The position numbers were made by a program, and so were the translations under genes. This document shows positions 6,849 to 58,335 of a DNA stretch of 64,000 bases, piece by piece. This DNA comes from Actinomycetes bacterium. GTDB taxonomy: Bacteria; Actinomycetota; Acidimicrobiia; Acidimicrobiales; RAAP-2. Where the stretch lies: the NCBI GenBank assembly GCA_021823525.1, contig JAKANY010000005.1, positions 861-64,860 on the forward strand. The letters are read 5' to 3'. The notes under the pieces are model-generated. The model made no database searches. It saw only the letters and a program-made list of their open reading frames with translations, and had not been told where the DNA came from. Position 1 is the first letter of the stretch, and the number at the start of each line of letters is the position of its first letter.

Positions 6849-7702
6849 GACGGGCCGCCACCAAACTCCAGGGGTACCCCGATCCGAGTACGTCCAGCCT
6901 CGACGCCAACCCACGGCATCGAGGCCTCGTCACCGGGGACGTGCTGGTTCCGGAAGTCAACACCGACGACGTGGCCCGCGCGGTCGGCGGTGATGTCGTC
7001 CTGGTGCGATGGACTCATGTCCGGCACCGACGCGAGGTCGACCGGGTCTCGATGAACCAGTCGGGGCAGACCCGTTCCTGCGCCCGGCATGGTGCGCGGG
7101 CCAATCCGGCGCGACGACCGGCTCGCGTCCCTCCCCGCTCTCGGTCGCGAAGATGAGCGGATTCTCAAGAGCGTCTCGATGAAGGCGACACCGACGCCAA
7201 CGCGAACGAGGCGTTCGCCCACCCTAGGAATCCCGAAGACGCTATCGCCGGAGTCATGATTCGCCACTCTCCCGACATGCGCCGTACCGCCCTGCTCGAG
7301 CCATCGGAATGCGAACCGTCGAACCCGTTCGCGGTCGCGCTGACCACGGAGTGATCGGGCCGACGCTACGGCCGGATCACTCCTCCGGCTCTGGATTGGT
7401 GCACGCCACGCACGAGCACAACAGGACCCGGCAACGACCCAGCGAGAGAGGGCGGCCTCAAGGGGTCAGCGCGATACCCGGTGAGTCGTCCTTGGGCGGT
7501 TTCCACCGCTTGGGCTCAACTCGTCAGCGCAGCAACGGATCCAACGGGACTTCTCGTCCACGCGTCTCACGGCTTCCAGCCCGGCGGCGTCGTCCACGAC
7601 GCGACGCCGCCGCCGGGGCGCACGATCGCACGGGCGGGCACGCTGGTGCTATCCATTCATCGGGGAGTCGGCGCGAGCGCCGATTGGAGGGGACCAGACA
7701 CG

Positions 7703-9388
7703 GTGAGCGACCTTTCGTACGACCGGGGCATCGAACTCGGCGACCGCACGTGGTGGGTCGGCGCCGCGATGGCCGACGGGTCGTTTCCGAGCAACGTTTA
7801 TCTCATCGAGCAGGGCGATCGCTCCGTCGTCATCGACCCCGGATCGTCACTCGGCGCCGAGGAGACGGCGGAACGGATCAACGCGGTGGTCGGTCTGCGT
7901 AACGTGCGCTGGATCGTGTCCAGCCAACCCGACGCCGACAAGGTCGCGGCCCTGCCCCACCTCCTCTCGCGCGGGCTGCACCCCGAGGTCGCAGTCGTCA
8001 CCCACTGGCGGGCCCACGGGTCGCTGCGCCGCGCGGGCTTGGCCATCCCCCTGCACAGCATCGACGACGGGCGCCACCGCATCGAGCTGGACGACCGGAC
8101 CTTGCACTTCCTGCCCACGCCGTACCTGCGCTCGGCCGGGGCCTTCGCGACCTTCGACGAGCGCTCGAGAGTCCTCTTCAGCTCGGACCTCTTCGGCAGC
8201 TTCGAGTCCGGGTCCACGCTCTTCGTGGACGCCCCTGAAAATATCGACGCGATCCAGCGCTTCCACGTCTATTCCGTGGCGAGTCGCGACGTGCTCGCAC
8301 ACGCGCTGCTCGCAGTGCGATCGGCGAACCCGCGGATGATCGCACCCCAGCACGGACGCATCATCACCGAGGACTTCACCGACTTGGCAATCAGCGCCCT
8401 CAGCGACCTCGACTGCGGGGCCCTCCTGCTCACGCCCGACGACCCCGGTCTCTCGTTCCTCTTCGCGGCGAACCGGACAATCCACGGCATCATCAACACC
8501 CTCGTGAAGGAGCACGACTTCTCGACAGTCGCCGCGCACCTCGCGGGCCTGGCCGAGAAGACGCTCGGCGCCGAGTACTTCGAGCTGTGGGCGGGCACCA
8601 ACGGGGTGCTGTTTCGCTTCGAGCGCGAGGACGACTACGCCGGGCACCGCGACGTCCCGCCCGAGGACGTGGCCAGCGTGCTCGCCGGGCAGACCGTCGC
8701 GCCGGACCACCGGCTCGTCCTGGCGATGCGGTCGCCCTCGACGGGCACGATCGACGGAGTGATGCTCTGGGGCTTTCGCGAGCGGTGGGTGCCGAGCGAC
8801 GCGACGCTCGTGGTGCTGAACCAGATCATCTCGCTGGTCGAGGTCGGCCTCGAGCGCGAGATCCTGCGGCGCACCGCCGACCTCGAACTCTCGGAGTGGC
8901 ACACGCGCGCGATCTACGACCCGCTGACTGGACTGCGCAACCGTGCCTCGCTCGCCGACACTTACCACCAGCTCGCGGCCTTCGACGACCGCAACGCCGA
9001 GCCGCAGATGGCCGCGCTGATGGTCGACGTGGACCACTTCAAGGCCGTCAACGACACCTTCGGCCACGCCGTCGGCGACCTCGTGCTGCAGCGGATCGCG
9101 CACGCGATTCTCCAGAGCGTGCGCCCGAGCGACCCGTCCTTCCGCCTCGGCGGCGAGGAGTTCCTCGTGCTGCTCTCCAACGTCGACGGCACCGGTGCCG
9201 GCCTCGCCGCAGATCGGATCCGCGAGCGGGTCGCGCGCGCCACGCCCGACCTCCCGATCGTCACGGTCAGCGTCGGCCTGGCGATGCGTCGACTGAACGA
9301 GATCCAGGAGTTGCTGCTCTCGCGAGCCGACGCCGCCCTGTACCGCGCCAAGGAGAACGGCCGTGATCGCGTCGAGGTCGCCCCCTAG
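7703..9388 (+). CDS. MBL-fold (ODP/flavodiiron-like) + GAF-like + GGDEF diguanylate cyclase
   Basis: N-terminal NVYLI..VIDPG, FSSDLFG, IAPQHG; C-terminal YDPLTGLRNR, DVDHFKAVNDTFGHAVGD, RLGGEEF with an RxxD I-site. GTG 7703 follows GGAGG. Confidence 0.88.
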   Translation: MSDLSYDRGIELGDRTWWVGAAMADGSFPSNVYLIEQGDRSVVIDPGSSLGAEETAERINAVVGLRNVRWIVSSQPDADKVAALPHLLSRGLHPEVAVVTHWRAHGSLRRAGLAIPLHSIDDGRHRIELDDRTLHFLPTPYLRSAGAFATFDERSRVLFSSDLFGSFESGSTLFVDAPENIDAIQRFHVYSVASRDVLAHALLAVRSANPRMIAPQHGRIITEDFTDLAISALSDLDCGALLLTPDDPGLSFLFAANRTIHGIINTLVKEHDFSTVAAHLAGLAEKTLGAEYFELWAGTNGVLFRFEREDDYAGHRDVPPEDVASVLAGQTVAPDHRLVLAMRSPSTGTIDGVMLWGFRERWVPSDATLVVLNQIISLVEVGLEREILRRTADLELSEWHTRAIYDPLTGLRNRASLADTYHQLAAFDDRNAEPQMAALMVDVDHFKAVNDTFGHAVGDLVLQRIAHAILQSVRPSDPSFRLGGEEFLVLLSNVDGTGAGLAADRIRERVARATPDLPIVTVSVGLAMRRLNEIQELLLSRADAALYRAKENGRDRVEVAP

Positions 9389-10683: not shown

Positions 10684-12261
10684 TCAACGCGCTGAACTCA
10701 CGAGAGCGTCGACGAGCACCGTTGCGTAGGAGGACCGCAGAGCGCTGCTGTGGGGACCGCGAACCTCCACCGCGGCGCGCTCGCGCCCGTGGTGAATCAC
10801 GAGGATCGACCCGGCGTCGCGGGCTGGTCCGCTCACGCGCACAAAGCCGGCCGGCACGGTCAAACTCGCGCAGCCGCCGCGCACGAGGACCGTCGTTGGC
10901 CAGCGCGCCGCCGCACTCGCCGCGATCCTCACCTCCCAGGTCGTGCGCGCCCCACAGTGGCCGACCTCGACCAGGAGCGCCGAGCCCGACGTCATGCGTG
11001 CCGCGACGGGTGCCGGAACCGGGCGGTCGAGCGCCCGCGCCGCACCACCGGCGGCTTCGGCCAGCACCGGGCTCGCGGCCGGCGCGACGCTCGCAGCCAG
11101 CGCGGGCACCGAGCCCACGACGAGCACCCCCACGGCGACGAGCGACGCCGCCGAGGTGACCAGAGGCGCGAGACGCGGCACCCGGGCCGGGGCCTCGCTC
11201 GGAGCCGCGCGCAGCGCCAGGGCGCCCACGACCACGAGGATTGCCTGGGGCAGCATCGAGTTCGGGTCGGTCCCGACCCCTCCCCAGAAACCCATGTCCT
11301 GGACGATCACCCAGTCAACGAGCGTCAGCGCCACGAGCACGCCGACGCCCGCGCGCACGCTCGTGCGCCGACCCGTGAGCAGCAGCACACCGCTCGTCGT
11401 CATCAGCACCACGACGACGAGGTTCACCGCCCCGCCGTGCGCGCCCACGCCGCGAGCCGACGCCGCGATCAGCGACGCGAGCCAGTGGGGCTGGCTGTTG
11501 CCGGCCATGGTCTGGAGGGTCGCGGTGAGATTCCCGGTCGTGTGCCGGCCGGCGCCCTGCCAGGACCCGCGGCCCGGCCAGGCCTGCAGCAGCGCCATGG
11601 CCACCAGGAACGATCCGTAGATCGCCAGCAGGCGCCGTCCCAGGCGCGGCGTCCACGCGGTGAGGGGCAGGGCCACGAGCAGCCCGGCGACCGCGTAGAA
11701 GACCACGCCGCCCGGCGCGCCGGTGAGCCACGACAGGCCCGGGGCGAAGATGCCGCCGAAGGCCTCGCCGAGCGCCCACACGAGCACGCTCCAGGCCAGG
11801 CTGACCAGGCCCGCCGCCCGCGACCACCAGCCGCGCGGCGCGACCAGCAACCAGATCCCGATGCCCAGCTGGATCCACACCGCGGAGGCCGGGACACTGA
11901 TCGGGTGCTGGTTCCACAGGTTCCCGCCCCAGTTGACCATCGCCTGAACCCAGCCCGGGGACGTGCTGGCCGCGGGCGCCACCACCTGGGGCACCATCGC
12001 GAGCGGCATCGAGGCCTGGGCCTGAAGGATCCCGTCGAAGACCCAGATCGCCCCGAAGGCGACGCGCACCACGCACCGCGCCACGGGCTCGGCGGCGACG
12101 GCCGCCCGCGGCGCTCCGCGCAGCCGCCGCCAGGCGACAGCGCCCACGACCACGGCCAGCGCCACCGCGGCGATGGCCACCAGCTCGACGATCAGCTCGT
12201 GGTAGAAGCCCGACACCACCACCGGGCTTCCCGCCGACAACCCTGTCGACAGGCCCGGCAT
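10684..12261 (-). CDS. Polytopic membrane protein with two DoxX-like modules and a degenerate thioredoxin/SCO-like C-terminal tail
   Basis: RVAFGAIWVFDGILQAQ and GGVGTDPNSMLP motifs, many hydrophobic helices; soluble tail after ALDRPVPAP lacks CxxxC. Confidence 0.6.
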   Translation of the reverse strand: MPGLSTGLSAGSPVVVSGFYHELIVELVAIAAVALAVVVGAVAWRRLRGAPRAAVAAEPVARCVVRVAFGAIWVFDGILQAQASMPLAMVPQVVAPAASTSPGWVQAMVNWGGNLWNQHPISVPASAVWIQLGIGIWLLVAPRGWWSRAAGLVSLAWSVLVWALGEAFGGIFAPGLSWLTGAPGGVVFYAVAGLLVALPLTAWTPRLGRRLLAIYGSFLVAMALLQAWPGRGSWQGAGRHTTGNLTATLQTMAGNSQPHWLASLIAASARGVGAHGGAVNLVVVVLMTTSGVLLLTGRRTSVRAGVGVLVALTLVDWVIVQDMGFWGGVGTDPNSMLPQAILVVVGALALRAAPSEAPARVPRLAPLVTSAASLVAVGVLVVGSVPALAASVAPAASPVLAEAAGGAARALDRPVPAPVAARMTSGSALLVEVGHCGARTTWEVRIAASAAARWPTTVLVRGGCASLTVPAGFVRVSGPARDAGSILVIHHGRERAAVEVRGPHSSALRSSYATVLVDALVSSAR

Positions 12262-12265
12262 GGCC

Positions 12266-12820
12266 TCAGCCCTCCGTCGTCCGCGGCGAGCCCTGCTGGA
12301 CGCGCACCACGAGGGCGAGCAACGTGATCCACATCGCCAGCACCAGGGCCAGGAGCACGGCCACCGCCCAGCGGCCGATCAGGCCGTCGGTGCGCGTCGC
12401 GTTGATCGGCCCCGCGAAGGGGTCGGTGCGCGCGACCGACGCGGTCAGCGTGCCCTGGGCGATCGTCGAGCCGCCGAGGGCGGCGGTCGCCACGAAGCTC
12501 GTCGGACCGGCCCAGGTGGGCTGGTAGGTGAACGCGGCGACGCCTGACGCGTCGGTCGTGGCCCGGCCAATGGTCAGCAGGGGCGAGCCGGCGAACTCCG
12601 GGACGTGGACCTCGAAGGTCACGACCGCACCGGTGACCGGCGCACCCGCCGGCGAGTCGACGACGGCCGTGAGCGCGGTGCCCACGCCCGTGACCGGGGC
12701 GCCCGCGCGCAGCTGGAGGCTCGTGGCGCCCGACGCGCCCGCGACCCCGCCCAGGGCCAGCGCCAGGACGGCGACCCCGCCGACCAGCAGTCCCCCGAGC
12801 ACTCTCGTTGGCGTCCTCAC
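12266..12820 (-). CDS. Exported Ig-like (Big-type) protein with C-terminal membrane anchor
   Basis: GTG 12820 with AAGGAGG RBS, GTGA overlap with the upstream stop; signal peptide, beta-rich core (PVTGAVVTFEV, ATTDASGVAAFTY), C-terminal TM helix. Confidence 0.7.
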   Translation of the reverse strand: MRTPTRVLGGLLVGGVAVLALALGGVAGASGATSLQLRAGAPVTGVGTALTAVVDSPAGAPVTGAVVTFEVHVPEFAGSPLLTIGRATTDASGVAAFTYQPTWAGPTSFVATAALGGSTIAQGTLTASVARTDPFAGPINATRTDGLIGRWAVAVLLALVLAMWITLLALVVRVQQGSPRTTEG

Positions 12821-14214
12821 GACCGACCTCCTTGCGTCCGCGTCTCGTGGGCCAGCTCCTCCATCTCGGTGACCGACAGGGCCGGCACGAAGCGGAAGAC
12901 GATCAGGAGCAGCAGGAAGATGGCGGCGGTCGCGGCCACCGTGATCGAGATGGAGATCCAGGTGAAGTGGTAGGTCCCCCACCCCGTCGACACCCCGCCC
13001 GACGCCTTGGTCGCCGCGCGCACCAGGGGCTCGGTGGCGGCCGGGATCACGATGACGAGGCGCTTGACCCACAAGGAGAGCACCACGAAGACCGAGGCGA
13101 TGGTCACGCCGGTCTTGGTACGCAGGGGCTTGATCGCCATGATCAGCAGCGGCACGAGGCCGCCGGCCACGAAGTAGAACCAGAAGGGCACCCAGTAGCG
13201 GCCCGCGACGACCTGGTGGACCCAGGCCGCCGGTCCCGCGGTGTTGGAGTAGCCATCGATGAGGTACTCGGTGAAGGTCAGGTAGAGGTAGGCCGCACCG
13301 AAGGCGATCATCAAGAAGCCCAGGCGCACGAAGTGCCGCGACGCGATGTAGCTCTCCAGGTGGAACAGCTTGCGCACCGCGGCCACCGATATCACGACGA
13401 GGGCGACGCCCGAGTACAGGGCGGCCACGACGAAGTACACCGGGAGGATCGTCTCCATGTAGCCCGCCCGCGAGGAGGACGCGAAGGCAAAGCTGAGCAC
13501 CGAGTGCACCGAGACGGCCATGGGGATGATCATGATCGCGAGCAGCCCGATGGACCCGTTGAGGCGCCGGCGCTCGGTCGGCGTCCCGCCGTAGCGGCCC
13601 ACGAGGGTCCGGTAGAGCGTCTGGCGGACCTTCACCCGCGTCGAGGGGGCCTCGGCGTCGAGCTGCTCCAGGGCCACCTTGGCGTCGGGCACCAGGGGCA
13701 GGTAGAAGAAGACGATGGTCGCCATCAGGTAGGTCGACACCGCGAAGAAGTCCCAGAGGATCGGTGAGGACAGGTTCCAGTAGGGCGGCCAGACCAGCTC
13801 CCAGATCTTGCCCGGGTTCCCGAGGTGGGGGATGATGAAGATCATCCCGATGGGCAAGGTCACCAGCGCGGTCGCCTCGGCGATGCGCGTCAGGGGAGCG
13901 CGCCAACTCTGGTGGGTCAGGCGCAGGATCGCCGAGACGACGGCGCCTCCGTAACTCACGCCGATGAAGGTCACCAAGTTGGACTCGTAGATGCCCCAGA
14001 AGGCGTCGTCGTTGTAGCCCGCCGAGCCGAGCCCGTGGGCCAGCTGGAAGATCCACGCGACGATACCCAGCGCCACGACGGCCCCCAGAACCAGGACGCT
14101 CGGCCACCACCACCGTGGGGTCTCGAGCACCGGTCGCAGGACCGCGTGACGCAACTCGTGGTCGACCGGGTGCGCCTCGGAGGGCACCGGCTCGACGATC
14201 ACATCAGTCATCAC
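12817..14214 (-). CDS. nrfD: NrfD/PsrC-family membrane subunit, ActC-like
   Basis: About ten TM helices; VSAILRL..W..PLTRIAEA, PHLGNP, SSPILWDFFAVSTY, SVHSVLSF and PVYFVVAALYSG resemble alternative complex III ActC motifs. Confidence 0.88.
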   Translation of the reverse strand: MMTDVIVEPVPSEAHPVDHELRHAVLRPVLETPRWWWPSVLVLGAVVALGIVAWIFQLAHGLGSAGYNDDAFWGIYESNLVTFIGVSYGGAVVSAILRLTHQSWRAPLTRIAEATALVTLPIGMIFIIPHLGNPGKIWELVWPPYWNLSSPILWDFFAVSTYLMATIVFFYLPLVPDAKVALEQLDAEAPSTRVKVRQTLYRTLVGRYGGTPTERRRLNGSIGLLAIMIIPMAVSVHSVLSFAFASSSRAGYMETILPVYFVVAALYSGVALVVISVAAVRKLFHLESYIASRHFVRLGFLMIAFGAAYLYLTFTEYLIDGYSNTAGPAAWVHQVVAGRYWVPFWFYFVAGGLVPLLIMAIKPLRTKTGVTIASVFVVLSLWVKRLVIVIPAATEPLVRAATKASGGVSTGWGTYHFTWISISITVAATAAIFLLLLIVFRFVPALSVTEMEELAHETRTQGGRS

Positions 14215-14229
14215 ATTCCTCTCGTGGGG

Positions 14230-15075
14230 CTAGTCGCCCGAGTCGTTGTCGTTGACGAGGTCCTGGCCGTGGCCCGGGATGTAGAAGACGCGCGGGTGCG
14301 TCCCGTACTCCTCCTTGAAGACCATCCCGTTGTTCTCGGCCAGGAAGGTCGAGATCTTGATCGTCTGGCCCATCCCGTTCACCGCCGTGTCCGAGGTCAG
14401 GTCGCCGAAGTAGATGACGCCCATCGCGCAGTGCGTCGCGCACTCGGGGATCTGCCCGGTCGGCAGCATGGCCGCGCAGTCGATGCACTTGCCCACGGTC
14501 CCCTGCACCTGGGGCACCGGCCACTCGGGGCTCTGGGCGTAGGGCTGCTTCGGCGCGGGCTCGGGAGCTCCCCAATTGAAGTAGCGCGCGTCGTAGGGGC
14601 AGGCGTTCATGCAGATGCGCGTGCCGATGCACTTGGACTGGTCCACCAGCACCAGGCCCTCGGGCGTGCGGAAGTTGGCGCCCACCGGGCACACCGGCAC
14701 GCACGCCGGGTCCTCGCACTGCATGCACGGCCGCGGCATCGGGTACTCCTCGCCCGCGGCGTTGGTCATGGTGTAGACCTTCATCCACGTCTGGTCCTCG
14801 TGGAGGAAGTGCGCCGTCTGGCACGCGGTCGTGCACAGCTGACAGCCGTTGCACATGCGCAGGTCGATGATCATGCACCACTGCTTGGTCGGGCCGCTCG
14901 TCGTCGTCGTCGTTGACGCCGGCTCGGCGGCCAGAGCCACCGTCCCACCGACCGCGCCGAGCACGCCGAGCCCGATCCCGCCGATCGCCGCCGCACGCAG
15001 GACGCTGCGGCGCTGGATGGTGACGGCGGTTGCCGTCGCCCCCGCCGTCGTCGTGTCGATCATTGCCTCACTCAT
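14230..15075 (-). CDS. Tat-exported multi-Fe-S ferredoxin-type subunit (NrfC/PsrB/ActB2-like)
   Basis: Start MSEAMID (ATG 15075, TGATG overlap); QRRSVL twin-Arg signal; CNGCQLCTTAC, CMQCEDPACVPVC, CIGTRICMNAC, KCIDC-x11-CATHC. Confidence 0.92.
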   Translation of the reverse strand: MSEAMIDTTTAGATATAVTIQRRSVLRAAAIGGIGLGVLGAVGGTVALAAEPASTTTTTSGPTKQWCMIIDLRMCNGCQLCTTACQTAHFLHEDQTWMKVYTMTNAAGEEYPMPRPCMQCEDPACVPVCPVGANFRTPEGLVLVDQSKCIGTRICMNACPYDARYFNWGAPEPAPKQPYAQSPEWPVPQVQGTVGKCIDCAAMLPTGQIPECATHCAMGVIYFGDLTSDTAVNGMGQTIKISTFLAENNGMVFKEEYGTHPRVFYIPGHGQDLVNDNDSGD

Positions 15076-15815
15076 CAGTCCACCACCTTGATGTCGCCTT
15101 CCATCCAGTTCGTCGTCGACATGGCGCCACTGCCGCCGTTGGCGCCCGCACCGCACGGCGCGTAGCACTGCCACACGAAGGTTCCCGTCTTGGTCGGGAT
15201 GAACGTCGCTTCAACGGTGACGTGGCCGTTGCCCGTGGCCGCGGGGATCGGCATGTTGAAGTTGAACGCGTCGATCGTGAAGGTGTGGGCGACCGTCACG
15301 TCCGAGATCGACGACACGGTCTTGCCGCCGATCGTCTCGGTGCCGGTCGTGGACCCCATGACGTGGTCGAACATCATCTGGGCGCCCTGGAGGGGTGCCG
15401 TTCCGTTGTCGTAGCTGGTGATGATCACCGTGACCTTCTCGTCCTTCTTCACCGTCCAGGACGCGTTGGTGTACTTGGGCTGGCCGCCGAGCGCGCCCGT
15501 GGTGTTGGTGATGATCGACATGCGCTCAGTGACGGCGCCGTGGGCCACGACCGCCGGCACGGCCGTCGAGGGCTTGGTCGCGTCGCGGATGGCGGCCGCC
15601 ACTCCGCTCACGATCGCGACGGTCACGCCCAGGCCCACGAGGATCACGGCCAGCGAGCCGATCACGATCGTGCCGCCGGCGGCCGCCCGCTTGGGGCGTC
15701 GCCAGCTCAGGCGACCGAGACGGGCCAGCGGATCGCTGGCCCCGAGACGGGCGAGCGGATCCCGGGCGCTGTCGCGCCCGGGATCCGTCGTGCGGGAAGA
15801 GCGGTCGTCGCTCAC
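15075..15815 (-). CDS. Membrane-anchored cupredoxin-fold protein (copy C)
   Basis: GTG 15815 overlaps the upstream stop; single TM helix; AHTFT...WQCYAPCG...MSTTNWMEGDIKV. Confidence 0.75.
   Translation of the reverse strand: MSDDRSSRTTDPGRDSARDPLARLGASDPLARLGRLSWRRPKRAAAGGTIVIGSLAVILVGLGVTVAIVSGVAAAIRDATKPSTAVPAVVAHGAVTERMSIITNTTGALGGQPKYTNASWTVKKDEKVTVIITSYDNGTAPLQGAQMMFDHVMGSTTGTETIGGKTVSSISDVTVAHTFTIDAFNFNMPIPAATGNGHVTVEATFIPTKTGTFVWQCYAPCGAGANGGSGAMSTTNWMEGDIKVVD
15757..15786 (-). promoter_or_regulatory. 12-bp perfect stem-loop just after the stop of cupredoxin B (inside the 5' end of copy C)
   Basis: GGATCCCGGGCG (15757-15768) pairs with CGCCCGGGATCC (15775-15786); 6-nt loop. Confidence 0.55.
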
Positions 15816-16372
15816 GCCACGACCCGGATCTTGCCGGTCATCCACGTCATGGTCGACATGGCGCCGCTCATGCCGTTCGCGCCACTGCCGCAGGGGGCGT
15901 AGCAGTGCCACACGAACGTCCCGGTCTTCTCGGGCACGAAGGTCGCGCTGACCACGATGTGACCGCTCGTGGGCGCGACGGGGATCGGCATGTTGAAGTC
16001 GAGGCCCGGCACGGTGAAGGTGTGGGCGATGTTGATGTCCGACACCGTCGAGACGACCTTGCCGCCCGCCAGCTCCTTGCCGTTGGTGGTGCCCAAGACC
16101 TTGTCGTACTTCACGTAGCTGCCGACCAGGGGCGCGGTGCCGTCGTCGAAGCTGATGATGCGCACGGTGACCGTCTCACCCTTCTTCACGGTCCAACTGG
16201 AGTTGAGGATCTTGGGCCAGCCGGAGCGGCCGTCCATGTGACCCGTCACGAGACGCATGGTCTCGGTCACGTGCGTCGAGGCGGCGCTGGCCGACGTGGT
16301 CGCCAGGGCGCCGGTGGCCAGCGGGGCGAGGGCGAGAACCAGGGAGGCCGCCTTGGCCATCGGGTGCTTCAT
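15812..16372 (-). CDS. Secreted cupredoxin-fold protein (copy B)
   Basis: ATG 16372 with AGGAGG RBS; Sec signal MKHPMAKAASLVLALAPLA; AHTFT...WHCYAPCG...MSTMTWMTGKIRV. Confidence 0.8.
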   Translation of the reverse strand: MKHPMAKAASLVLALAPLATGALATTSASAASTHVTETMRLVTGHMDGRSGWPKILNSSWTVKKGETVTVRIISFDDGTAPLVGSYVKYDKVLGTTNGKELAGGKVVSTVSDINIAHTFTVPGLDFNMPIPVAPTSGHIVVSATFVPEKTGTFVWHCYAPCGSGANGMSGAMSTMTWMTGKIRVVA

Positions 16373-16424
16373 CGTGGAATTCCTCCTATGTGTGCTAAAT
16401 GTCATGGCTGGGGGGATTGGCGTC

Positions 16425-16461
16425 TCGCCTCGCGCCGCCCCTCGGGGGCGGCGCGAGGCGA
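16425..16461 (-). promoter_or_regulatory. 17-bp perfect stem-loop between cupredoxin A and B
   Basis: TCGCCTCGCGCCGCCCC (16425-16441) pairs with GGGGCGGCGCGAGGCGA (16445-16461); 3-nt loop; no U-tract on the minus strand. Confidence 0.7.
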
Positions 16462-16471
16462 AGGCGAACTG

Positions 16472-17032
16472 CTAGGCGAGGACCTTGATCTGGCCCTCCA
16501 TCCACGTCATGGTCGCCATGGAGCCCTTCATGCCGTCCGAGCCGCTGCCGCACGGGGCGTAGCAGTGCCAGATGAAGGTGCCGGACTTCTTGGCGACGAA
16601 GGTCGCGACGATGACGTTGGTCTTGCCCGTGGGCGCAGCGGGAATCGGCATGTTGAACCCGAGGCCCGGGATGGTGAAGGTGTGGGCGATGTTGATGTCC
16701 GACACCAGCGTGGTGGCCTTGCCGCTCACCAGCTCCTTGCCGGTGGTGGTGCCCATGACCTTGTCGTACTTCATGTAGTTGCCCGTCAGCGGGGCCGTGC
16801 CGTCATCGTGGTTGATGATGCGCACGGTGACCGTCTCGCCCTTCTTCACGGTCCAGCTGGAGTTCAGGATCCTGGGCTGTCCGCCGAGCGGGCCGGTCGT
16901 GTTGGTGACCAGCGTCATGGTCTCGGTGACGTGCGTCGAGGCGGCGCCCGCCATCCCGGCGACCAGGGCGCCGCTCGCCAGCGGGGCCAGTGCCAGGACC
17001 AGGGATGCCGCCTTGGCCATCGGGTGCTTCAT
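16472..17032 (-). CDS. Secreted cupredoxin-fold protein (copy A)
   Basis: AGGAGG RBS; same signal peptide start as copy B; AHTFT...WHCYAPCG...MATMTWMEGQIKV. Confidence 0.8.
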   Translation of the reverse strand: MKHPMAKAASLVLALAPLASGALVAGMAGAASTHVTETMTLVTNTTGPLGGQPRILNSSWTVKKGETVTVRIINHDDGTAPLTGNYMKYDKVMGTTTGKELVSGKATTLVSDINIAHTFTIPGLGFNMPIPAAPTGKTNVIVATFVAKKSGTFIWHCYAPCGSGSDGMKGSMATMTWMEGQIKVLA

Positions 17033-17072
17033 TCTGGGATTCCTCCTGTTTGGTGGTGGTACTGCCTCGCCA

Positions 17073-17102
17073 CCCGCCGCCGCCCCTTTTCCTGGCGGCG
17101 GG
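17073..17102 (-). promoter_or_regulatory. 9-bp stem-loop between cupredoxin D and A
   Basis: CCCGCCGCC (17073-17081) pairs with GGCGGCGGG (17094-17102); 12-nt loop. Confidence 0.5.
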
Positions 17103-17111
17103 AGACGACCT

Positions 17112-17669
17112 CTACGCCGTGACCTTCAGGAAGCCGCGCATGTACCCGTTGGTGGCCATCGACCACTTGTCGCAGGGCAGCGCGCAGAACCACTGGAACG
17201 TGCCGGTGGACTTGGGCGTGAAGGTGAAGTGGGTGACCGAGGGCGACGAGGCGCTCCCCGCAGGGGTGCTGGCGTTGATGTTGAAGTTGGGCAGCGTCCA
17301 GGTGTGGGCGTGCGCGTCGTAGTTGTAGATCACGACGTCGTAGGTGGTGCCCTTGGTCATGGTGAGCAGTCCGGGCACGAACGCGTCCTGGACGACGCCG
17401 TTGACCTTGACGCCACCGACCGGCGGCGGGTTGATCGAGAGCTTCACCGTCACGGCCTTCGGCGCACTGGCGACGGCGGGCGCGCTCGCGGTGACCGTCG
17501 TGGCCGCGCTCGGTCCCGTGACGCGGTGCCACACCCAGCCCACGCCCGCGGTCAGGGCGAAGAGCACTGCGGCGACGTAGACGGTCGCCAGCAGCAGGGT
17601 GACCAGGCCGCGCACGCGGCGGGGCTGCTCGCTCGTGGAAGGACGCAGGACGCTGGACTCGCTACTCAT
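17112..17669 (-). CDS. Membrane-anchored cupredoxin-fold protein (copy D, first gene of the operon)
   Basis: ATG 17669 with GAGGAG RBS; N-terminal TM; AHTWT...WFCALPCDKWSMATNGYMRGFLKV. Confidence 0.78.
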   Translation of the reverse strand: MSSESSVLRPSTSEQPRRVRGLVTLLLATVYVAAVLFALTAGVGWVWHRVTGPSAATTVTASAPAVASAPKAVTVKLSINPPPVGGVKVNGVVQDAFVPGLLTMTKGTTYDVVIYNYDAHAHTWTLPNFNINASTPAGSASSPSVTHFTFTPKSTGTFQWFCALPCDKWSMATNGYMRGFLKVTA

Positions 17670-17760
17670 GGACTCTCCTCGGCCGGGCTGATGTCGTGCC
17701 CACGTCCAGCCAGTTTGGTGAGCGCCGCGCTTGAGGTGTAGTGGGCAACCGCGGGTCAAC

Positions 17761-17782
17761 TCTCCCGTGTTTCCACGGTAGA
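17761..17782. promoter_or_regulatory. Imperfect inverted repeat, candidate response-regulator box
   Basis: TCTCCCGTG-TTTC-CACGGTAGA (9-bp arms, 1 mismatch) in the divergent promoter region between the operon and the regulator. Confidence 0.4.
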
Positions 17783-17819
17783 AAGACGACGTTCGACCTG
17801 GTGGCCTATCCTCAATGGC

Positions 17820-18494
17820 GTGTCAGAGGGGCCAGCGGCGTCGGCGTCGCCGATCACGGTGGTCGTGGTCGACGACCACACGGTCGTGCGCCGGGGCACC
17901 CGCGAGATGCTCGAGCGCGAGCCCGACATCACCGTCGTCGACGACGTGGGGACCATTGAGGAGGCCCTGGCCGCCGTGCGACGCCACCAGCCCACGCTGC
18001 TGGTCGTCGACGTCGAGCTGCCTGACGGCTCCGGGGTCGACATCGTTCGGCACCTCGTGGAGGAGAACTCGCCGGTGCGCTGCCTCATGCTCTCGGCTCA
18101 CGACGACTACGTCTACTTCTCCGAGTCCCTGGCGGCCGGAGCCGCCGGGTACCTGCTCAAGACCGTCTCGACCGAGAAGTTCATCGCCGCGGTGCGCACC
18201 GTCGCCCTGGGGGGGACCGTGATCGACGGCGTCCTCTCCCACCGTCTGGCCGGGCGCCGCCAGCAGCCCGAGGAGCGCCTGGCGGCCTCGCTGACCGCGC
18301 GCGAGTTCGACGTGATCCGGGGCCTCGTGCGAGGGCGCTCCAACAAGGAGATCGCCAAGGAGCTCGGGGTGGGCCTGCGCACCGTCGAGAGCTACGTCTC
18401 GACGATCCTGTCCAAGCTCGGGGTGCGCTCGCGCGCCGAGGCCATCGTCTACGTCCTCGAGCACCACCTCGTGACGCCCGGGTCGGCCCGATGA
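17820..18494 (+). CDS. NarL/LuxR-family response regulator
   Basis: REC domain (VVDDH, VVDVELPD, GYLLK) plus LuxR HTH (LTAREFDV..GRSNKEIAKELGVGLRTVESY); TATCCT -10 lies 7 nt before the GTG (leaderless). Confidence 0.95.
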   Translation: MSEGPAASASPITVVVVDDHTVVRRGTREMLEREPDITVVDDVGTIEEALAAVRRHQPTLLVVDVELPDGSGVDIVRHLVEENSPVRCLMLSAHDDYVYFSESLAAGAAGYLLKTVSTEKFIAAVRTVALGGTVIDGVLSHRLAGRRQQPEERLAASLTAREFDVIRGLVRGRSNKEIAKELGVGLRTVESYVSTILSKLGVRSRAEAIVYVLEHHLVTPGSAR

Positions 18495-19891
18495 GCCCCG
18501 AGCCGCCCAGGGTCGCCCTGCGCGAGGTGCTCGCGCGCGCCCTCCACCCCCCGGTGCGCGAGCGGGCTTTCTGGTTCGTCCAACTCATGGTCGCCGTGTG
18601 GGCCGTCGTCCACCTGCTGATCGACGCGCACGGGTTCCTCAGTCCCTCGTGGTTCCCCTACGGGACACCCATCGACCTGCTCCTGATCCCGGTGGGCTAC
18701 GCGGCCCTCCACTACGGGCTCTCGGGCTCGGCCGCCACCACCCTGTGGTCGATCCTGCTGTGGATGCCCGATCTGCTCATGCCCGACGATCGGGGCCACT
18801 ACCACCACGACCTGGTCCAGCTGGCCGTCGTGGCCGTGGTCGCGCTCTTCGTGGGGCTCGAGATCGAGCGCTCCCATCTGCAGCGCAACCGCGCCGAGGC
18901 CGCCGAAGCCGAGCGACGCGCGGCCGAGGCCCACTACCACCAGCTCTTCGCCGCCAACATCGCGCCGATCCTGCTCGTCAACAGCGCGGGGCACGTCGTC
19001 GAGCACAACGAGGCCACGCGAACGCTCTGGGAGGACCCCCTGGGCCAGACCCTCGAGGAGTTGCTCGGCGTGGACCCGCGCGACTGGCCCGACTCGCTGA
19101 CGGTGGCCCTCGAGACCCCGAGCGGCGAGCGGACCTACCGCGTCTCGACGACGGTCCTCGCCGGCACCGCGCCTCCGCTCTCCCAGGTCATCCTCGAGGA
19201 CATCACGGCCGAGCGCCGCAGCGAGGCCGAGGCGCGCGCCTGGGCCATCGAGGTGCTGCGAGCCCAGGAGCAGGAGCGCCGCCGGATCGCCCGCGAGATC
19301 CACGACGACCCGCTCCAGGAACTGCTCCAGCTGGCGCGCGAGTTCGAGGTGCTCGAGCGCGGCACCTCCGAGACGGGCGTCACGACCGCGCGCGAGCACC
19401 TGCTCGACACCGTCGCGCACCTGCGCGAGGTGACTCGCGGGCTGCACCCGGCCGGGCTCGACCAGCACGGCCTGGTCGCCGCCCTGCGGGGCCTGCTCGT
19501 CGACGTCGAGATCGAGACGGGTGTGCTCACGAGCTTCGCGCTCGCGGGCGAGCCCCTGGACGAGCGACCCGAGGTCGAGGTGGCGCTCTTTCGCATCGTC
19601 CAGGAGGCGGTGCGCAACGCCGTGCGCCACGCCCGGGCCGATCACCTGCGCGTCGAGCTCGACATCGACGACGCGGCGGCGACCGTCACCATCACCGACG
19701 ACGGCGTGGGCTTCGACCCGGACACCAACCCCGCGAGCGGGCACCTCGGGCTCCAGAGCATGACCGAGCGTGCCGTGCTGCTCGGGGGCACCTGCGAGGT
19801 GGTGAGCGCCCCGGGGGCCGGGACGCGCGTGCGCGCGACCCTGCCGCTCGTGGCGACATCGGGTCTCCCCCTCGTCCGCCATCACGTCTGA
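18491..19891 (+). CDS. Sensor histidine kinase (membrane sensor, PAS-like, HisKA_3, HATPase)
   Basis: ERRRIAREIHDD H-box, QEAVRNAVRH N-box, DDGVGF and GLQSMTERA; ATGA overlap with the regulator. Confidence 0.93.
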   Translation: MSPEPPRVALREVLARALHPPVRERAFWFVQLMVAVWAVVHLLIDAHGFLSPSWFPYGTPIDLLLIPVGYAALHYGLSGSAATTLWSILLWMPDLLMPDDRGHYHHDLVQLAVVAVVALFVGLEIERSHLQRNRAEAAEAERRAAEAHYHQLFAANIAPILLVNSAGHVVEHNEATRTLWEDPLGQTLEELLGVDPRDWPDSLTVALETPSGERTYRVSTTVLAGTAPPLSQVILEDITAERRSEAEARAWAIEVLRAQEQERRRIAREIHDDPLQELLQLAREFEVLERGTSETGVTTAREHLLDTVAHLREVTRGLHPAGLDQHGLVAALRGLLVDVEIETGVLTSFALAGEPLDERPEVEVALFRIVQEAVRNAVRHARADHLRVELDIDDAAATVTITDDGVGFDPDTNPASGHLGLQSMTERAVLLGGTCEVVSAPGAGTRVRATLPLVATSGLPLVRHHV

Positions 19892-19906: not shown

Positions 19907-22009
19907 GTGGCGATGCGCACCGTCGGTCCGTCACGCCCACGCGCACCCCGCGCGCGGGTGCGGCGTGCGCTGACGCACCTGGTCGCGGCGCCGCGCGCCG
20001 CCGCGTCGCGCTGGCTCGCCACCACCACCTACGGGCGCAAGTGGCTGGTGCTGGGCTCGCTGATCGGGCTCGTGGCGGGACTCGGCGCCGTCGTGTTCTA
20101 CGAGGCGCTGGTGGGCGTCACGCACCTCCTGCTGGGCACGCTCGGCCAATACCGCCCACCCACGCCCGCGGGCGAGGGCGGGCTCGCGGGCAGCGGATCG
20201 TTCGCGCGTCCCTGGGCCATTCCCCTGATCGTCGCGGGCGGCGCGCTGCTCGCGAGCCTGCTCGTCGTCTACGTCGCCCCCGAGGCCGAGGGCCACGGGA
20301 CCGACGCGGCCATCGCGGCGGTGCATCACAACCCGCGCGGCATCCGCCTGCGCGCCGTCGCGGTCAAGATCGTCGCCTCGGCCCTGACCATCGGAGCGGG
20401 AGGCTCGGGCGGGCGCGAGGGGCCCACCGGCCAGATCAGCGCCGGCTTCGGCTCGGCCCTGGCGCGCCTGTTCGACCTCGGGCCCCGTGACGCGCGCATC
20501 GCCGTCTCGGCGGGGATCGGGTCGGGCATCGGGGCGATCTTCGGCGCCCCTCTCGGCGGAGCGGTGCTGGCCTCCGAGGTCCTCTACCGCGACGACTTCG
20601 AGGTCGACTCCCTGCTCCCCGCCTTCATCGCCTCGATCGTCGCGTACGCGCTGTTCGGCTCGATCCTGGGCTTCACGCCGCTGTTCGGCTACGTGGGCAC
20701 CTATCACCTTCTGAGCGCGGGACCGCTCGCCTGGTTCGCCGTCATCGGGGTCGTCAGCGGCCTGGTCGGCCTGGCCTACGCCACCGTCTTCTACCGCTTG
20801 GCCGACGCCTTCGCCCGCTCGCGCGTGCCGCGCTGGCTGCGCCCCGCCCTGGGCGGCCTGGTCGTGGGCCTGGTGGGCCTGGCTGTCCCCCAGGTCCTGG
20901 GAACCGGCTACGGCTGGGTCCAGCACGCCTTCGACCAGCGCCTGCTCGCGATGCCCCTGTGGCTGGTGCTGGTGATCCCGCTCGCGCGGATCGTGGCGAC
21001 GGGTCTGTCGATCGGCTCGGGGGGATCGGGCGGGATCTTCGGGCCCGGCATGGTCATCGGGGCGTTCGTGGGCGCGGCGGTGTGGCGCGTCTTCGCGCCC
21101 CTCACCCCGGGCCTCGGCCACGACCCAGCGCCCTTCGCCATCGTGGGCATGATGGCGTGCTTCGGCTCGATCGCCCGGGCGCCACTCGCGGTGATGCTCA
21201 TGGTTGCCGAGATGACCGGGACGCTGTCCCTGCTCATCCCGGCGATGGTGGCCGTGGGCATCGCCACGCTCATCGTCTCGCGCACCGACGCCACCATCTA
21301 CCGCAGCCAGCTGCGCAACCGAGCCGAGGCGCCCGCGCACCGGATCGTGACGGGCCTGCCGCTGCTCGCCACGGTGCGCGCCGAGGCCGCCGTCAGCCCG
21401 CCGCGCCTGGTCCTGGACGGCGCCACCCCCGTCGCCGCGGCAGCGGCGCTCGTGGACGAGCTGGGCGTCGCGGGCGCGCCGGTCGTCGACGACGACGGGC
21501 GCCTGCGCGGTGTGGTGCGCGTCACGGACCTCGCGGGCGCGAGCGCGACCCCCGAGCGACCGGTTGCCGACGTCGCCGACGGGGACGCCCTGCCCCTGCG
21601 CGGCTCGGACCACCTGGACCGGGTCGTCGAGGCGCTTCTCGCCACGCCCGACGCCTGGGCGCCGGTCGTGGACGACGCGCGCCACGTGGTGGGGGTGATC
21701 GGCCTCGCCGACGTGGTGCGCGCCTACCGCTCCAGCCTGCGCGAGCGCCTGGCCGCGCTCGCGCCCACGACGGACGTCGACGGCGTGCGCGCCCTGACCA
21801 TCGCACCGGGCTCGGCGCTCGACGGCGCACCGGTGCGCTCGACGGTCGTCCACGGCGTGCTGCTCACGACGATTCAGCGCGGCGATGCGATCATCGAGCC
21901 TCGCGGCACGACGGTGCTGGCCGCGGGCGATCGGATCACCGCGCTGGGCTCGGCGGGGGCCCTCGAGCGCGTCGCGCGTGCGGCGAGCACGCCGGGCCCG
22001 GCGAGCTAG
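19907..22009 (+). CDS. ClC-family chloride channel/antiporter with CBS and TrkA-C domains
   Basis: GHGTD, GSGGREGP, GGSGGIFGP motifs; CBS pair and C-terminal IQRGD..IEPRG RCK_C segment. The true start may be ATG 19913. Confidence 0.92.
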   Translation: MAMRTVGPSRPRAPRARVRRALTHLVAAPRAAASRWLATTTYGRKWLVLGSLIGLVAGLGAVVFYEALVGVTHLLLGTLGQYRPPTPAGEGGLAGSGSFARPWAIPLIVAGGALLASLLVVYVAPEAEGHGTDAAIAAVHHNPRGIRLRAVAVKIVASALTIGAGGSGGREGPTGQISAGFGSALARLFDLGPRDARIAVSAGIGSGIGAIFGAPLGGAVLASEVLYRDDFEVDSLLPAFIASIVAYALFGSILGFTPLFGYVGTYHLLSAGPLAWFAVIGVVSGLVGLAYATVFYRLADAFARSRVPRWLRPALGGLVVGLVGLAVPQVLGTGYGWVQHAFDQRLLAMPLWLVLVIPLARIVATGLSIGSGGSGGIFGPGMVIGAFVGAAVWRVFAPLTPGLGHDPAPFAIVGMMACFGSIARAPLAVMLMVAEMTGTLSLLIPAMVAVGIATLIVSRTDATIYRSQLRNRAEAPAHRIVTGLPLLATVRAEAAVSPPRLVLDGATPVAAAAALVDELGVAGAPVVDDDGRLRGVVRVTDLAGASATPERPVADVADGDALPLRGSDHLDRVVEALLATPDAWAPVVDDARHVVGVIGLADVVRAYRSSLRERLAALAPTTDVDGVRALTIAPGSALDGAPVRSTVVHGVLLTTIQRGDAIIEPRGTTVLAAGDRITALGSAGALERVARAASTPGPAS

Positions 22010-54924: not shown

Positions 54925-55307
54925 CGCCGTCGCCGCCAGCGCCAGGCGAAGGCACCGAGGGCCGCGAGGACGAGGGCGAGCGGCCCGGCCCACAGCAGCG
55001 CTCCCAGTCCCCGAGTCGGGGGGCTCAGCAGGATGCTCGGGCCGTAGGCGGTCTCGAGCGAGGTGAGGATCGACGCGTCGGACTGGCCGCGCGCGACGTC
55101 GCGGGCGATCGCGCGGCGCACGGCGAGCGCCGTGGGCGCGCTCGACTGGGCGACCGAGAGGTCCTCGCAGCTCGGGCAGCGCACCAGCGTCTCGAGGTGG
55201 GCGACGCGCGCGGCGCGCGAGGGCGTGCGCGGGCTGAGCACCAGGGTCACGGCGGCCAGGACCACGACGGCGACCCCGAACAGCCAGGGCGAGCGCAGCG
55301 CCCTCAC
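54921..55307 (-). CDS. ccmH: Cytochrome c biogenesis protein CcmH
   Basis: VRCPSCEDLSVAQS, YGPSILLSP. Confidence 0.9.
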   Translation of the reverse strand: MRALRSPWLFGVAVVVLAAVTLVLSPRTPSRAARVAHLETLVRCPSCEDLSVAQSSAPTALAVRRAIARDVARGQSDASILTSLETAYGPSILLSPPTRGLGALLWAGPLALVLAALGAFAWRWRRRR

Positions 55308-55834
55308 GCGCGCACCCGGGCGACCGCGCGGCGCAGCTGGGCCGCGCTCACCGGGCCGAGCAGCTCGGCGGCGACGGTGCCGCGCGGGCCGATGACGTAG
55401 GTCGTGGGCGGCGAGGTCACCCCGTAGCGGTTGGCGATCGCCCCGCCCGGGTCGATGACCGAGGGGTAGAGCGAGCCGTAGTGACGGCTGAAGGCGCGCG
55501 CGGCGCCCACCGTGTCGTCAAAGACCACCCCCACCACCTCGACCCCCCGGTGGCGCATCGACCACGCGAAGGTGGACAGCTCGGGCGCCTCGGCGACGCA
55601 CGGCCCGCACCACGAGGCCCAGAAGCTCACCACCACCACGCGGCCACGCTGAGCGGCGAGGTCGAAGCGGCCCCCCGAGAGCTCGGCACCCACCAGGGCG
55701 GGCGCCGGGCGCCCGAGCAGGGGGCTCGGGGCGCTCGTCGCCTCGCTCACCGGGTGGCGGGTGGCGAGCAGCACCGACAGCCCCACGACCAGGACCAGCG
55801 CCACCGCGGCCGCGACCCGCACCGCGCGCCTCAC
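55304..55834 (-). CDS. ccmG: TlpA/CcmG thiol-disulfide oxidoreductase
   Basis: FWASWCGPC, YGVTSPPTT; position within the ccm operon. Confidence 0.88.
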   Translation of the reverse strand: MRRAVRVAAAVALVLVVGLSVLLATRHPVSEATSAPSPLLGRPAPALVGAELSGGRFDLAAQRGRVVVVSFWASWCGPCVAEAPELSTFAWSMRHRGVEVVGVVFDDTVGAARAFSRHYGSLYPSVIDPGGAIANRYGVTSPPTTYVIGPRGTVAAELLGPVSAAQLRRAVARVRA

Positions 55835-57783: not shown

Positions 57784-58253
57784 CGCACCGAGCCGTTGGG
57801 CGCGCGCACCCGCGACGGGTGCGCCGCGATGTACTGCGCGGTGTGCTTGACCAGGATCTGGGTCCCGGTGAAGACCCGCGCGGTGGCGCTGGCGAAGTGG
57901 CCCACCACGACGACGGGGATGTTGGGCCCGAACAGCTCGGGCGGCGCGCCCGACTCGTGGACCGGGATGGACCCGCGCGAGCCGGTCACGACGAAGTTCG
58001 CGCCCAGCGCCGTGCGCTCGATGGAGTGGGGCGCGACGAGCCCCTCGAGGCGCACCTCGTGGCTGCCGAGACTCGCCCGGCTGGCCAGCACCTGGTCGAC
58101 GGTCTCGAAGTAGTTGAGGTTGCTCAGCAGCCCCTGGCTGAGCAGCAGCACGATCAGGCCCGCCAGCACCACCAGGACGACCAGCGTGCGCCGGCGCGAG
58201 CGGTCGGGCGCCGGCGGCGGCGCGACCGGCGCGAGCGGGTCAGCGACGCTCAC
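57780..58253 (-). CDS. ccmE: Heme chaperone CcmE
   Basis: TM anchor, RLEGLV..S, PPELF, ILVKHTAQY (HxxxY). Confidence 0.9.
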   Translation of the reverse strand: MSVADPLAPVAPPPAPDRSRRRTLVVLVVLAGLIVLLLSQGLLSNLNYFETVDQVLASRASLGSHEVRLEGLVAPHSIERTALGANFVVTGSRGSIPVHESGAPPELFGPNIPVVVVGHFASATARVFTGTQILVKHTAQYIAAHPSRVRAPNGSVR

Positions 58254-58335
58254 GGCGGCCCCGCCAGACCAGCGAGAGCGCGTAGAGCCCGATGCCCCCC
58301 AGGGCGGCCGCGTAGCCGGCCAGGACGTAGCTCAC
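58240..58335 (-). CDS. ccmD: Heme exporter protein CcmD (31 aa)
   Basis: (M)SYVLAGYAAALGGIGLYALSLVWRGRRERR, hydrophobic then basic, between ccmC and ccmE with overlaps on both sides. Confidence 0.8.
   Translation of the reverse strand: MSYVLAGYAAALGGIGLYALSLVWRGRRERR

Follow-up and report, generated by a model that had tools for sequence, protein, structure and literature searches.

A NrfC/NrfD module with residues typical of alternative complex III and copper-protein partners in Acidimicrobiia: a candidate haem-free menaquinol:cupredoxin oxidoreductase

The known complex III-type steps, in which quinol hands its electrons to a carrier that is either soluble or tethered, are carried out by the bc1/b6f complexes and by alternative complex III (ACIII), both of which use haem. 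In ACIII, the residues of the quinol site in the membrane subunit ActC include His139, Ser164, Asp169 and Asp253 (Calisto and Pereira, PMC8076601), Arg395 occupies the position of a proposed proton gate (PMC13059093), and a copper protein, auracyanin, can serve as the acceptor in Chloroflexi (PMC10873879, PMC3150298). In the DsrOP pair, DsrO carries four clusters, all [4Fe-4S], while DsrP has a strictly conserved Asp at the position of the His (bioRxiv 10.64898/2026.08.25.746951). Here we describe a NrfC/NrfD pair encoded in an Actinomycetes bacterium of the order Acidimicrobiales, on a stretch of 64,000 nucleotides (contig JAKANY010000005.1 of assembly GCA_021823525.1, positions 861 to 64,860; hereafter, the window). 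The pair carries residues typical of ACIII and yet, judged by its phylogeny, is not ACIII. It is encoded together with cupredoxins derived from CuA domains, and we favor, with modest confidence, its interpretation as a haem-free menaquinol:cupredoxin oxidoreductase that passes electrons to aa3-type oxidases.

The assembly that holds the window is 1.83 Mb long and 95% complete, and the GC content of the window is about 73%. The pair belongs to a tight minus-strand operon of the order cupD-cupC-cupB-cupA-NrfC-NrfD-Ig-like-M525, next to which a two-component system is encoded on the opposite strand:

14230-15075, minus strand: NrfC-type four-cluster iron-sulfur subunit, 281 amino acids (Fer4_11, cluster motifs, Tat signal)
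12817-14214, minus strand: NrfD-family membrane quinol subunit, 465 amino acids, about 10 transmembrane helices (Pfam NrfD, 101 bits)
12266-12820, minus strand: Ig-like subunit, 184 amino acids, with a transmembrane helix at the N-terminus and another at the C-terminus (sequence, weak Big_1 match)
10684-12261, minus strand: M525, polytopic membrane protein, 525 amino acids (no family match)
15075-15911, minus strand: open reading frame of cupA, a membrane-anchored CuA-derived cupredoxin, with the product at about 15075-15650 or somewhat beyond
15812-16405, minus strand: cupB, exported CuA-derived cupredoxin (CoxB match, 0.0029)
16472-17032, minus strand: cupC, exported CuA-derived cupredoxin (weak NosZ and CoxB matches, CtaC alignment, AlphaFold2 model)
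17112-17759, minus strand: cupD, divergent membrane-anchored paralogue in which the Cys-to-Met loop is short (Cupredoxin_1, 2.7e-4)
17820-18494, plus strand: NarL/LuxR-type response regulator, divergent (Response_reg, 8e-24; GerE, 2e-17)
18491-19891, plus strand: histidine kinase (membrane sensor domain, HisKA_3, HATPase_c and a weak match to PAS)

The NrfC start is M34 of the open reading frame at 14230-15174 (base 15075), and the N-terminus, MSEAMIDTTTAGATATAVTIQRRSVLRAAAIGG, is a twin-arginine (Tat) signal (QRRSVL). Four cluster motifs follow, C108xxC111xxC114xxxC118, C150xxC153x4C158xxxC162, C182-I-G-T185-R-I-C188-M-N-A-C192-P and C230xxC233x11C245xxxC249. These motifs contribute 15 ligand Cys, and the one non-motif Cys, C100 (QWCMIIDL), is aligned with Ala in PsrB and ActB. 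The only Pfam matches are to Fer4-type domains (Fer4_11, 6.5e-16), with no molybdopterin-like B1 domain. Thus, the four Cys motifs, the Fer4_11 match and the Tat signal place the protein among four-cluster ferredoxins of the NrfC/PsrB type, with Thr for the second Cys in motif 3. An earlier note, made from the letters of this DNA, had given the coordinates of the pair, the CIGTRIC motif with 15 ligand Cys, a Tat signal on the iron-sulfur subunit itself and the lack of B1, and all of this is borne out, with 16 Cys in total. The closest matches to solved structures are PsrB (2e-27), ArrB (1.5e-24) and ActB (3e-20); CIGTRIC aligns with CIGTRYC of Rhodothermus marinus ActB (6f0k_B). Among the NCBIfam models, DsrO fits best, at 163 bits against a cut-off of 200 bits. 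Because Thr185 stands for the second Cys, the proximal cluster, adjoining the membrane subunit, is predicted to be of the [3Fe-4S] type.

NrfD matches Pfam PF03916 over residues 67-393 at 101 bits (cut-off, 25.8 bits), and a hydropathy scan gave about 10 transmembrane helices. It contains PHLGNP (129-134) and SPILWD (150-155), both of which had already been read from the sequence, and WVKR with Lys384-Arg385. In the alignment with R. marinus ActC (6f0k_C, phmmer E = 3e-44), His130, Ser150 and Asp155 correspond to His139, Ser164 and Asp169, respectively, so that for both subunits the proposed alignment to the characterized ActB and ActC holds. The site as a whole is only partly ACIII-like: His, Ser and Asp align, but the third quinol-site residue of ActC, Asp253, is replaced with Ala243, and Ala is found throughout the clade of the window protein, across which His, Ser and Asp are invariant. 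The conserved WxxR arginine is part of WFER in ActC and of WVKR in NrfD, where Arg385 is the equivalent of Arg395 and Lys384 occupies the position of Glu394. Among solved structures, NrfD matches the ActC chains 6f0k_C, 6lod_C, 6btm_C and 8k9e_C and, weakly, ActF; PsrC is absent from these phmmer matches at E <= 0.01.

To place NrfD, maximum likelihood trees were built from the 150 best matches among 1.84 billion representatives clustered at 50% identity, together with three solved ActC and with NrfD, HybB and DmsC of Escherichia coli; the full tree has 111 rows. The ActC references were transcribed from phmmer alignments, and their lengths were checked. Verified DsrP, QrcD, PsrC and TtrC were left out of the tree and are represented here by NCBIfam model scores and by residue states from the literature. 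The ActC clade, which includes all three solved ActC, comprises 37 rows (SH-aLRT 98). The window NrfD belongs to a separate clade of 66 rows (SH-aLRT 98), within which it is nested in a 14-row clade of Acidimicrobiia. In an approximately unbiased (AU) test on 54 rows under LG+G4, a single clade of this lineage and ActC was rejected (delta lnL 114, p-AU 0.001), the tested group having been named after the first tree had been inspected. None of the 10 tested neighbors reaches the equivalog cut-offs of DsrP or QrcD, and the 66-row clade is therefore uncharacterized. With the DsrP model (cut-off, 350 bits), true ActC score 42-62 bits, the window NrfD 75 bits and the Asp-type neighbors 86-132 bits. 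The states at the His, Ser, Asp and Asp253 positions and at the gate are distributed as follows:

ActC clade: H (36/37), S, D, D (35/37), gate E-R
Own clade of the window NrfD and one further sequence, P0125: H, S, D, A, gate K-R
Rest of the 66-row clade: D (46/52), S, D, hydrophobic, gate K/E-R

Where the window lineage has His, the rest of the 66-row clade has the motif D[VMLI]GRP[DE]. The pattern in NrfC is parallel. Orthologues at 58 loci keep C[IV]GTRIC, whereas a deeper subclade of Acidimicrobiia (L062-L081) and outer relatives (L085-L087) have CIGCR[MIF]C, and in a small tree of NrfC all Thr-type sequences group in a single clade (support 99/98) nested among Cys-type sequences. In the same tree, the B2 domain of R. 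marinus ActB is a long-branched sister of the whole NrfC family (94/90); this tree is indicative only, the ActB, PsrB and ArrB references being partial and transcribed from phmmer alignments. Since the motif is kept in 58 loci and His, Ser and Asp are invariant in the clade, the combination of these residues is not a chance feature of one sequence. Since Asp in NrfD and Cys in NrfC are the usual states among the relatives, the trees indicate that His and Thr are secondary, having arisen inside an Asp/4-Cys-type family in convergence with ACIII. Branching with the Psr, Ttr or Hyb proteins, or a misalignment of the His and Asp, had been named in the earlier note as outcomes that would speak against an ACIII-like pair, and neither was obtained; descent from ActC, however, is not what the phylogeny gives. 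No Actinobacteria are among the carriers of ActC/F in the survey of Calisto and Pereira (PMC8076601).

The pair had also been taken for a minimal unit, which it is not: it has conserved partners of its own, namely cupredoxins, the Ig-like subunit, often M525, and the two-component system. Gene neighborhoods were compared across 80 related loci, all from Actinomycetota metagenome-assembled genomes (MAGs) and the cultured Ferrimicrobium acidiphilum; 44 of the loci have enough flanking sequence. A cupredoxin homologue is encoded directly upstream of NrfC in all 44, a gene for the response regulator and/or kinase lies beside the operon in 40, and M525 is present in 26. The Ig-like gene directly follows NrfD in 68 of the 80 loci, and in at least 16 cluster representatives its product is joined to the C-terminal end of NrfD. 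Many relatives of 670-740 amino acids are such fusions of NrfD to the Ig-like protein (P0070, P0088, P0093, P0101 and others), and one protein of 765 amino acids, P0140, is a fusion of NrfD and NrfC. In the window, the stop codon of cupA and the start codon of NrfC share a base (TGATG), and the stop codon of NrfD overlaps the GTG with which the Ig-like gene begins (GTGA), 8 nucleotides upstream of which there is an AGGAGG. Through these overlaps, the cupA-NrfC and NrfD-Ig-like pairs are translationally coupled. The M525 gene begins 4 nucleotides past the Ig-like gene. The start of cupA is uncertain, because the N-terminal extension of its reading frame (15650-15911, minus strand), in which DPLARLG occurs twice as a short direct repeat, shares about 100 nucleotides with the end of cupB; the true start is probably downstream of 15911.

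The partner cupredoxins are distant relatives of the CuA domains of CoxII and NosZ, as indicated by weak matches to the NosZ and CoxB profiles. In the alignment of cupC with CtaC (8hcr_E, E 0.005), the H...C...C...M pattern is shared: AHTF corresponds to HSF/HAF, followed by the C-x3-C pair and a downstream Met. Little or no variation is seen across 163 cupredoxin homologues at D76, H117, W155, C157, P160, C161, M172 and M178. The CuA ligand set H...C-x-E-x-C-x3-H-x2-M is incomplete, with H117, C157, C161 and the Met present and the second His (C2+4) absent in all 163; a pattern of H, C, C, M, M without the second His was not found described as a copper centre in the searched literature. The AlphaFold2 model of cupC (pLDDT 90.7) retrieved, with Foldseek, the CuA domain of nitrous oxide reductase, CotA, AcoP, rusticyanin and subunit II of the ba3 oxidase. 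All the partners have export signals or transmembrane anchors, which puts them on the side to which NrfC is exported by the Tat system.

The Ig-like subunit is also encoded by the Asp-type outer relatives L086, L087 and L094. In L087, an Asp-type/Cys-type relative (context of P0144), the Ig-like subunit is accompanied by a monohaem cytochrome c instead of cupredoxins, near ResB/CcsA and a multihaem protein. Because L087 pairs the core with this cytochrome, NrfC-NrfD-Ig seems to be a platform with exchangeable haem or copper exit carriers. M525 has no match in Pfam or NCBIfam. Its conserved core of about 350 amino acids includes G70, W73, D76, Q80, H119, E166, GAPG and GTDPN; the AlphaFold2 model (mean pLDDT 68.9) has no significant Foldseek match, the DoxX-family NACHO/TMEM35A at E = 1.7 being a weak lead. 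In Ferrimicrobium, M525 is encoded between NrfC and NrfD, and in two genus-mates of the window genome (L088, L090), it lies 1-2 kb upstream of a cupredoxin-oxidase operon. From this latter location, M525 tracks cupredoxins rather than NrfCD.

The cupredoxins also lead to the terminal oxidases. The genome encodes QcrCAB, in which QcrC is dihaem, as well as a CtaC-CtaD oxidase, and another contig (C37:9392-13790) carries a second operon for an A-type oxidase, CoxII-CoxI-CoxIII, in which CoxII has a canonical CuA. This operon is headed by a fifth cupredoxin paralogue (C37:13050-13730), directly upstream of CoxII. The cupredoxin-CoxII-CoxI order recurs in three genus- or family-mates without NrfCD (G586, G488, G541) and twice in G569; F. 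acidiphilum has it twice as well, with a third paralogue upstream of NrfC. The components that would complete an ACIII were not detected in the 95% complete genome: the PF03916 match to NrfD is the single one, leaving no ActF; there is no PF11821 match for ActD; and, for ActA and ActE, a motif scan (not a profile search) of coding-like open reading frames found cytochrome-type CXXCH only in the dihaem QcrC. By the same scan, the operon contains no cytochrome-type CXXCH motifs and the genome no gene for a multihaem cytochrome; the 80 related loci are likewise free of such motifs. The sole PF00384 molybdopterin-fold protein looks like NuoG and is encoded on another contig. Actinobacteria are usually described as maturing c-type cytochromes with System II (ResBC/CcsBA). 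The window carries, at 55304-59129 on the minus strand, genes for the maturation of cytochrome c by System I (CcmC-like, CcmE, CcmF and a thioredoxin-like CcmG), the dihaem QcrC being the only c-type cytochrome seen in the genome.

The relatives of the window are Acidimicrobiia and other Actinomycetota. The NrfD clade was detected in 26 of the 201 sampled genomes of the order and in 18 of the 401 of the phylum, but not in three genus-mates and one family-mate of the window genome, and the cupredoxin family was found in all 15 tested NrfCD carriers compared to none of 8 non-carriers from other families. Within the window, the operon region (12001-18000) has a GC content of 0.675-0.706, against 0.72-0.77 over most of the rest. 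The closest copies (L002-L004, 89-90% protein identity) lack the ClC and GGDEF genes that flank the operon here. The lower GC content, the genus-mates without the operon and the different flanks of the closest copies together suggest an accessory, possibly horizontally moved module. Of the two flanking genes, the first encodes a chloride channel/antiporter of the ClC type, which carries CBS and TrkA_C domains (19907-22009, plus strand); it is located directly 3' of the kinase gene and is not kept beside the operon in relatives. The other, just past the operon (7481-9388, plus strand), encodes a sensor protein of 635 amino acids with a C-terminal GGDEF diguanylate cyclase domain. A distant relative of NrfD, P0141, has a C-terminal MshE-like motif that binds cyclic di-GMP, which hints that this messenger may bear on some members of the NrfD family.

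The interpretation as a menaquinol:cupredoxin oxidoreductase draws on the sequence features, phylogeny, synteny, fusions, translational coupling and cupredoxin-oxidase synteny described above, from which we infer the cofactor content, the direction of electron flow, a physical complex and an energy coupling through Arg385. The complex would consist of one or more cupredoxins, NrfC, NrfD, the Ig-like subunit and, often, M525, and would contain neither haem nor molybdenum. Menaquinol would be oxidized at the outer-face site of NrfD (His130, Ser150, Asp155), with the protons leaving to the outside, and the electrons would enter the proximal cluster of NrfC, the predicted [3Fe-4S], and continue through three [4Fe-4S] clusters to the membrane-tethered or exported CuA-derived cupredoxins. 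The tethered cupredoxins could then reduce the paralogue encoded in the oxidase operon, which would deliver the electrons to the CuA of the CoxII-CoxI-CoxIII (A-type) oxidase and on to O2. Such a route would run parallel to the canonical QcrCAB-aa3 route and would make the module a functional, copper-wired analogue of ACIII in its ACIII-auracyanin form.

Several observations weigh against this scheme. Because genus-mates keep the cupredoxin-oxidase operon without NrfCD, the oxidase branch does not require NrfCD, and the cupredoxins may have another source of electrons. With QcrCAB and CtaCD already encoded in the genome, a second quinol-oxidizing route is not obviously needed. The second CuA His is missing from the predicted metal site of the cupredoxins, so that copper binding, nuclearity and potential are not deducible from it. 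Nor is the direction of electron flow readable from the sequence, and within the family the residue at the site, be it His or Asp, fails to separate quinol oxidizers from quinone reducers (PMC8076601).

If the direction is left free, the cupredoxins could exchange electrons with extracellular Fe(II)/Fe(III), with NrfCD linking them to the menaquinone pool, an arrangement that we regard as conceivable, if unlikely. It could take the form of an uphill cupredoxin:quinone reductase, driven by the proton-motive force during Fe(II) oxidation (compare the reversed bc1 of Acidithiobacillus), or of a menaquinol:Fe(III) reductase under anoxia, with the cupredoxin-oxidase operons as the downhill branch. 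As many as four exported cupredoxin paralogues are encoded per operon, the Foldseek matches of cupC include AcoP and rusticyanin, which are acid-stable cupredoxins, and a cupredoxin-oxidase operon kept without NrfCD in genus-mates fits two separable branches. Against this, moving electrons from a copper centre of high potential to menaquinone (potential about -74 mV) would be a steep uphill step for an NrfD-type module, no feature pointing to iron binding or to the outer surface was seen, and soil, not an acidic site, is the source of some members of the wider clade. The carriers themselves are mostly MAGs with isolate names suggesting mine sites, together with F. acidiphilum, which performs both Fe(II) oxidation and Fe(III) reduction (PMC8790237); some iron-oxidizing acidophilic Actinomycetota have been reported without known iron oxidases (PMC13272565), and a-type cytochromes are reduced by Fe(II) in intact cells of Ferrimicrobium and Acidimicrobium (PMC5143472). 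The more specific proposal, to which we give slightly less credence still, is that, in Gram-positive acidophilic Acidimicrobiia such as F. acidiphilum, the missing chain of iron respiration is made up jointly of the NrfCD-cupredoxin and cupredoxin-oxidase operons: Met-rich CuA-derived cupredoxins at the surface would trade electrons with Fe(II)/Fe(III), aa3-type oxidases would be fed by one branch, and, as the other, NrfCD would couple reversibly to menaquinone, for reverse electron flow or Fe(III) reduction.

The remaining explanations assign the pair to a known enzyme. The earlier note took it for a minimal ActB2+ActC core, that is, an ACIII that has lost ActA, ActD, ActE, ActF and B1. These components are indeed not found, ActC are the only strong relatives of NrfD among solved structures, CIGTRxC, HxG and SPxLWD are held in common, and B2 of ActB is the nearest outgroup of the NrfC family in the small tree (94/90). 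A remnant of ACIII is nevertheless very unlikely and is disfavored here: NrfD lies in an Asp-type clade outside ActC (AU p = 0.001), the Thr-type NrfC is nested among Cys-type relatives, Asp253 and Glu394 of ActC are Ala and Lys in NrfD, and the Ig-like subunit is common to Asp-type relatives and has no match among the chains of ACIII. Even less probable, in our judgment, is an anchor or electron-transfer module of an enzyme encoded elsewhere, such as a Psr/Ttr/Dms molybdoenzyme, a Hyb hydrogenase, the Nrf nitrite reductase or DsrMKJOP. Automatic annotations of the homologues ("polysulfide reductase NrfD", "HybB-like", "molybdoenzyme membrane anchor") point in this direction, and DsrO and DsrP are the best NCBIfam matches of the pair, but all equivalog scores are below the cut-offs (DsrO 163 vs 200, DsrP 75 vs 350, TtrB 116 vs 416, NrfC 86 vs 378, HybA 74 vs 263). 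The one molybdopterin-fold protein of the genome is NuoG-like, there are no multihaem cytochromes, and a gene for such a partner is present in none of the 80 related loci. Anchors of a molybdoenzyme or a hydrogenase were rejected on these sub-cut-off scores and on the lack of a partner in the 80 loci; DsrOP was rejected on its two scores and on the replacement of Asp with His and of Cys with Thr. The copper-wired menaquinol:cupredoxin oxidoreductase thus remains the reading that we prefer, and with the module present in the cultured F. acidiphilum, the hypotheses laid out here are directly testable.

No description of an NrfCD-cupredoxin complex was found in the searched literature, most subscription journals lying outside the search, and the module is best characterized by comparison with four known systems. 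The DsrOP pair and the "DsrOhPhCyt" of cable bacteria resemble it in combining a small NrfC-type protein with a 10-helix NrfD-type protein without a molybdopterin subunit, and the nearest uncharacterized relatives of the pair have the DsrP-type Asp. The window NrfD differs from DsrP in having His in place of Asp107, and the setting differs from DsrMKJOP in that a DsrJ-like multihaem cytochrome was not found (the search did not extend to DsrM and DsrK). QrcCD, of the cytochrome c3:menaquinone oxidoreductase QrcABCD, is likewise an NrfCD-type dimer with a 10-helix subunit and a Ser at the quinone site. However, the score with the QrcC model is 98 bits against a cut-off of 400, there is no QrcD (NF041784) match at E <= 0.01, QrcD has Asp120, Tyr113 near the proximal cluster of QrcC is Ile187 in NrfC, and Qrc has its own partners, QrcA (haem) and QrcB. 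The cupredoxins share with the CuA domains of CoxII and nitrous oxide reductase the fold, the first His, C-x3-C and the downstream Met, but are free-standing proteins, anchored or exported, with invariant M172, M178 and Asp76 and no second His.

The likeness to ACIII (6F0K, R. marinus; 6BTM, Flavobacterium johnsoniae; 6LOD, Roseiflexus castenholzii; 8K9E) extends to a cofactor-free NrfD-type subunit of 10 helices with His, Ser and Asp at the outer face and WxxR, to a Tat-exported four-cluster iron-sulfur subunit with the proximal motif CxGTRxC, and to the lack of a catalytic molybdenum. The module is without B1, the pentahaem ActA, ActD, the monohaem ActE and ActF, and has its own extras, the two-helix Ig-like protein, the CuA-derived cupredoxins and M525. 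Independent convergence on His and on a proximal cluster predicted to be [3Fe-4S] would amount to a natural experiment on the role of these residues. If the favored interpretation is correct, the module would represent, next to bc1/b6f and ACIII, a third solution to the complex III-type step, an NrfCD core wired to copper proteins only and equipped with additional subunits of its own.

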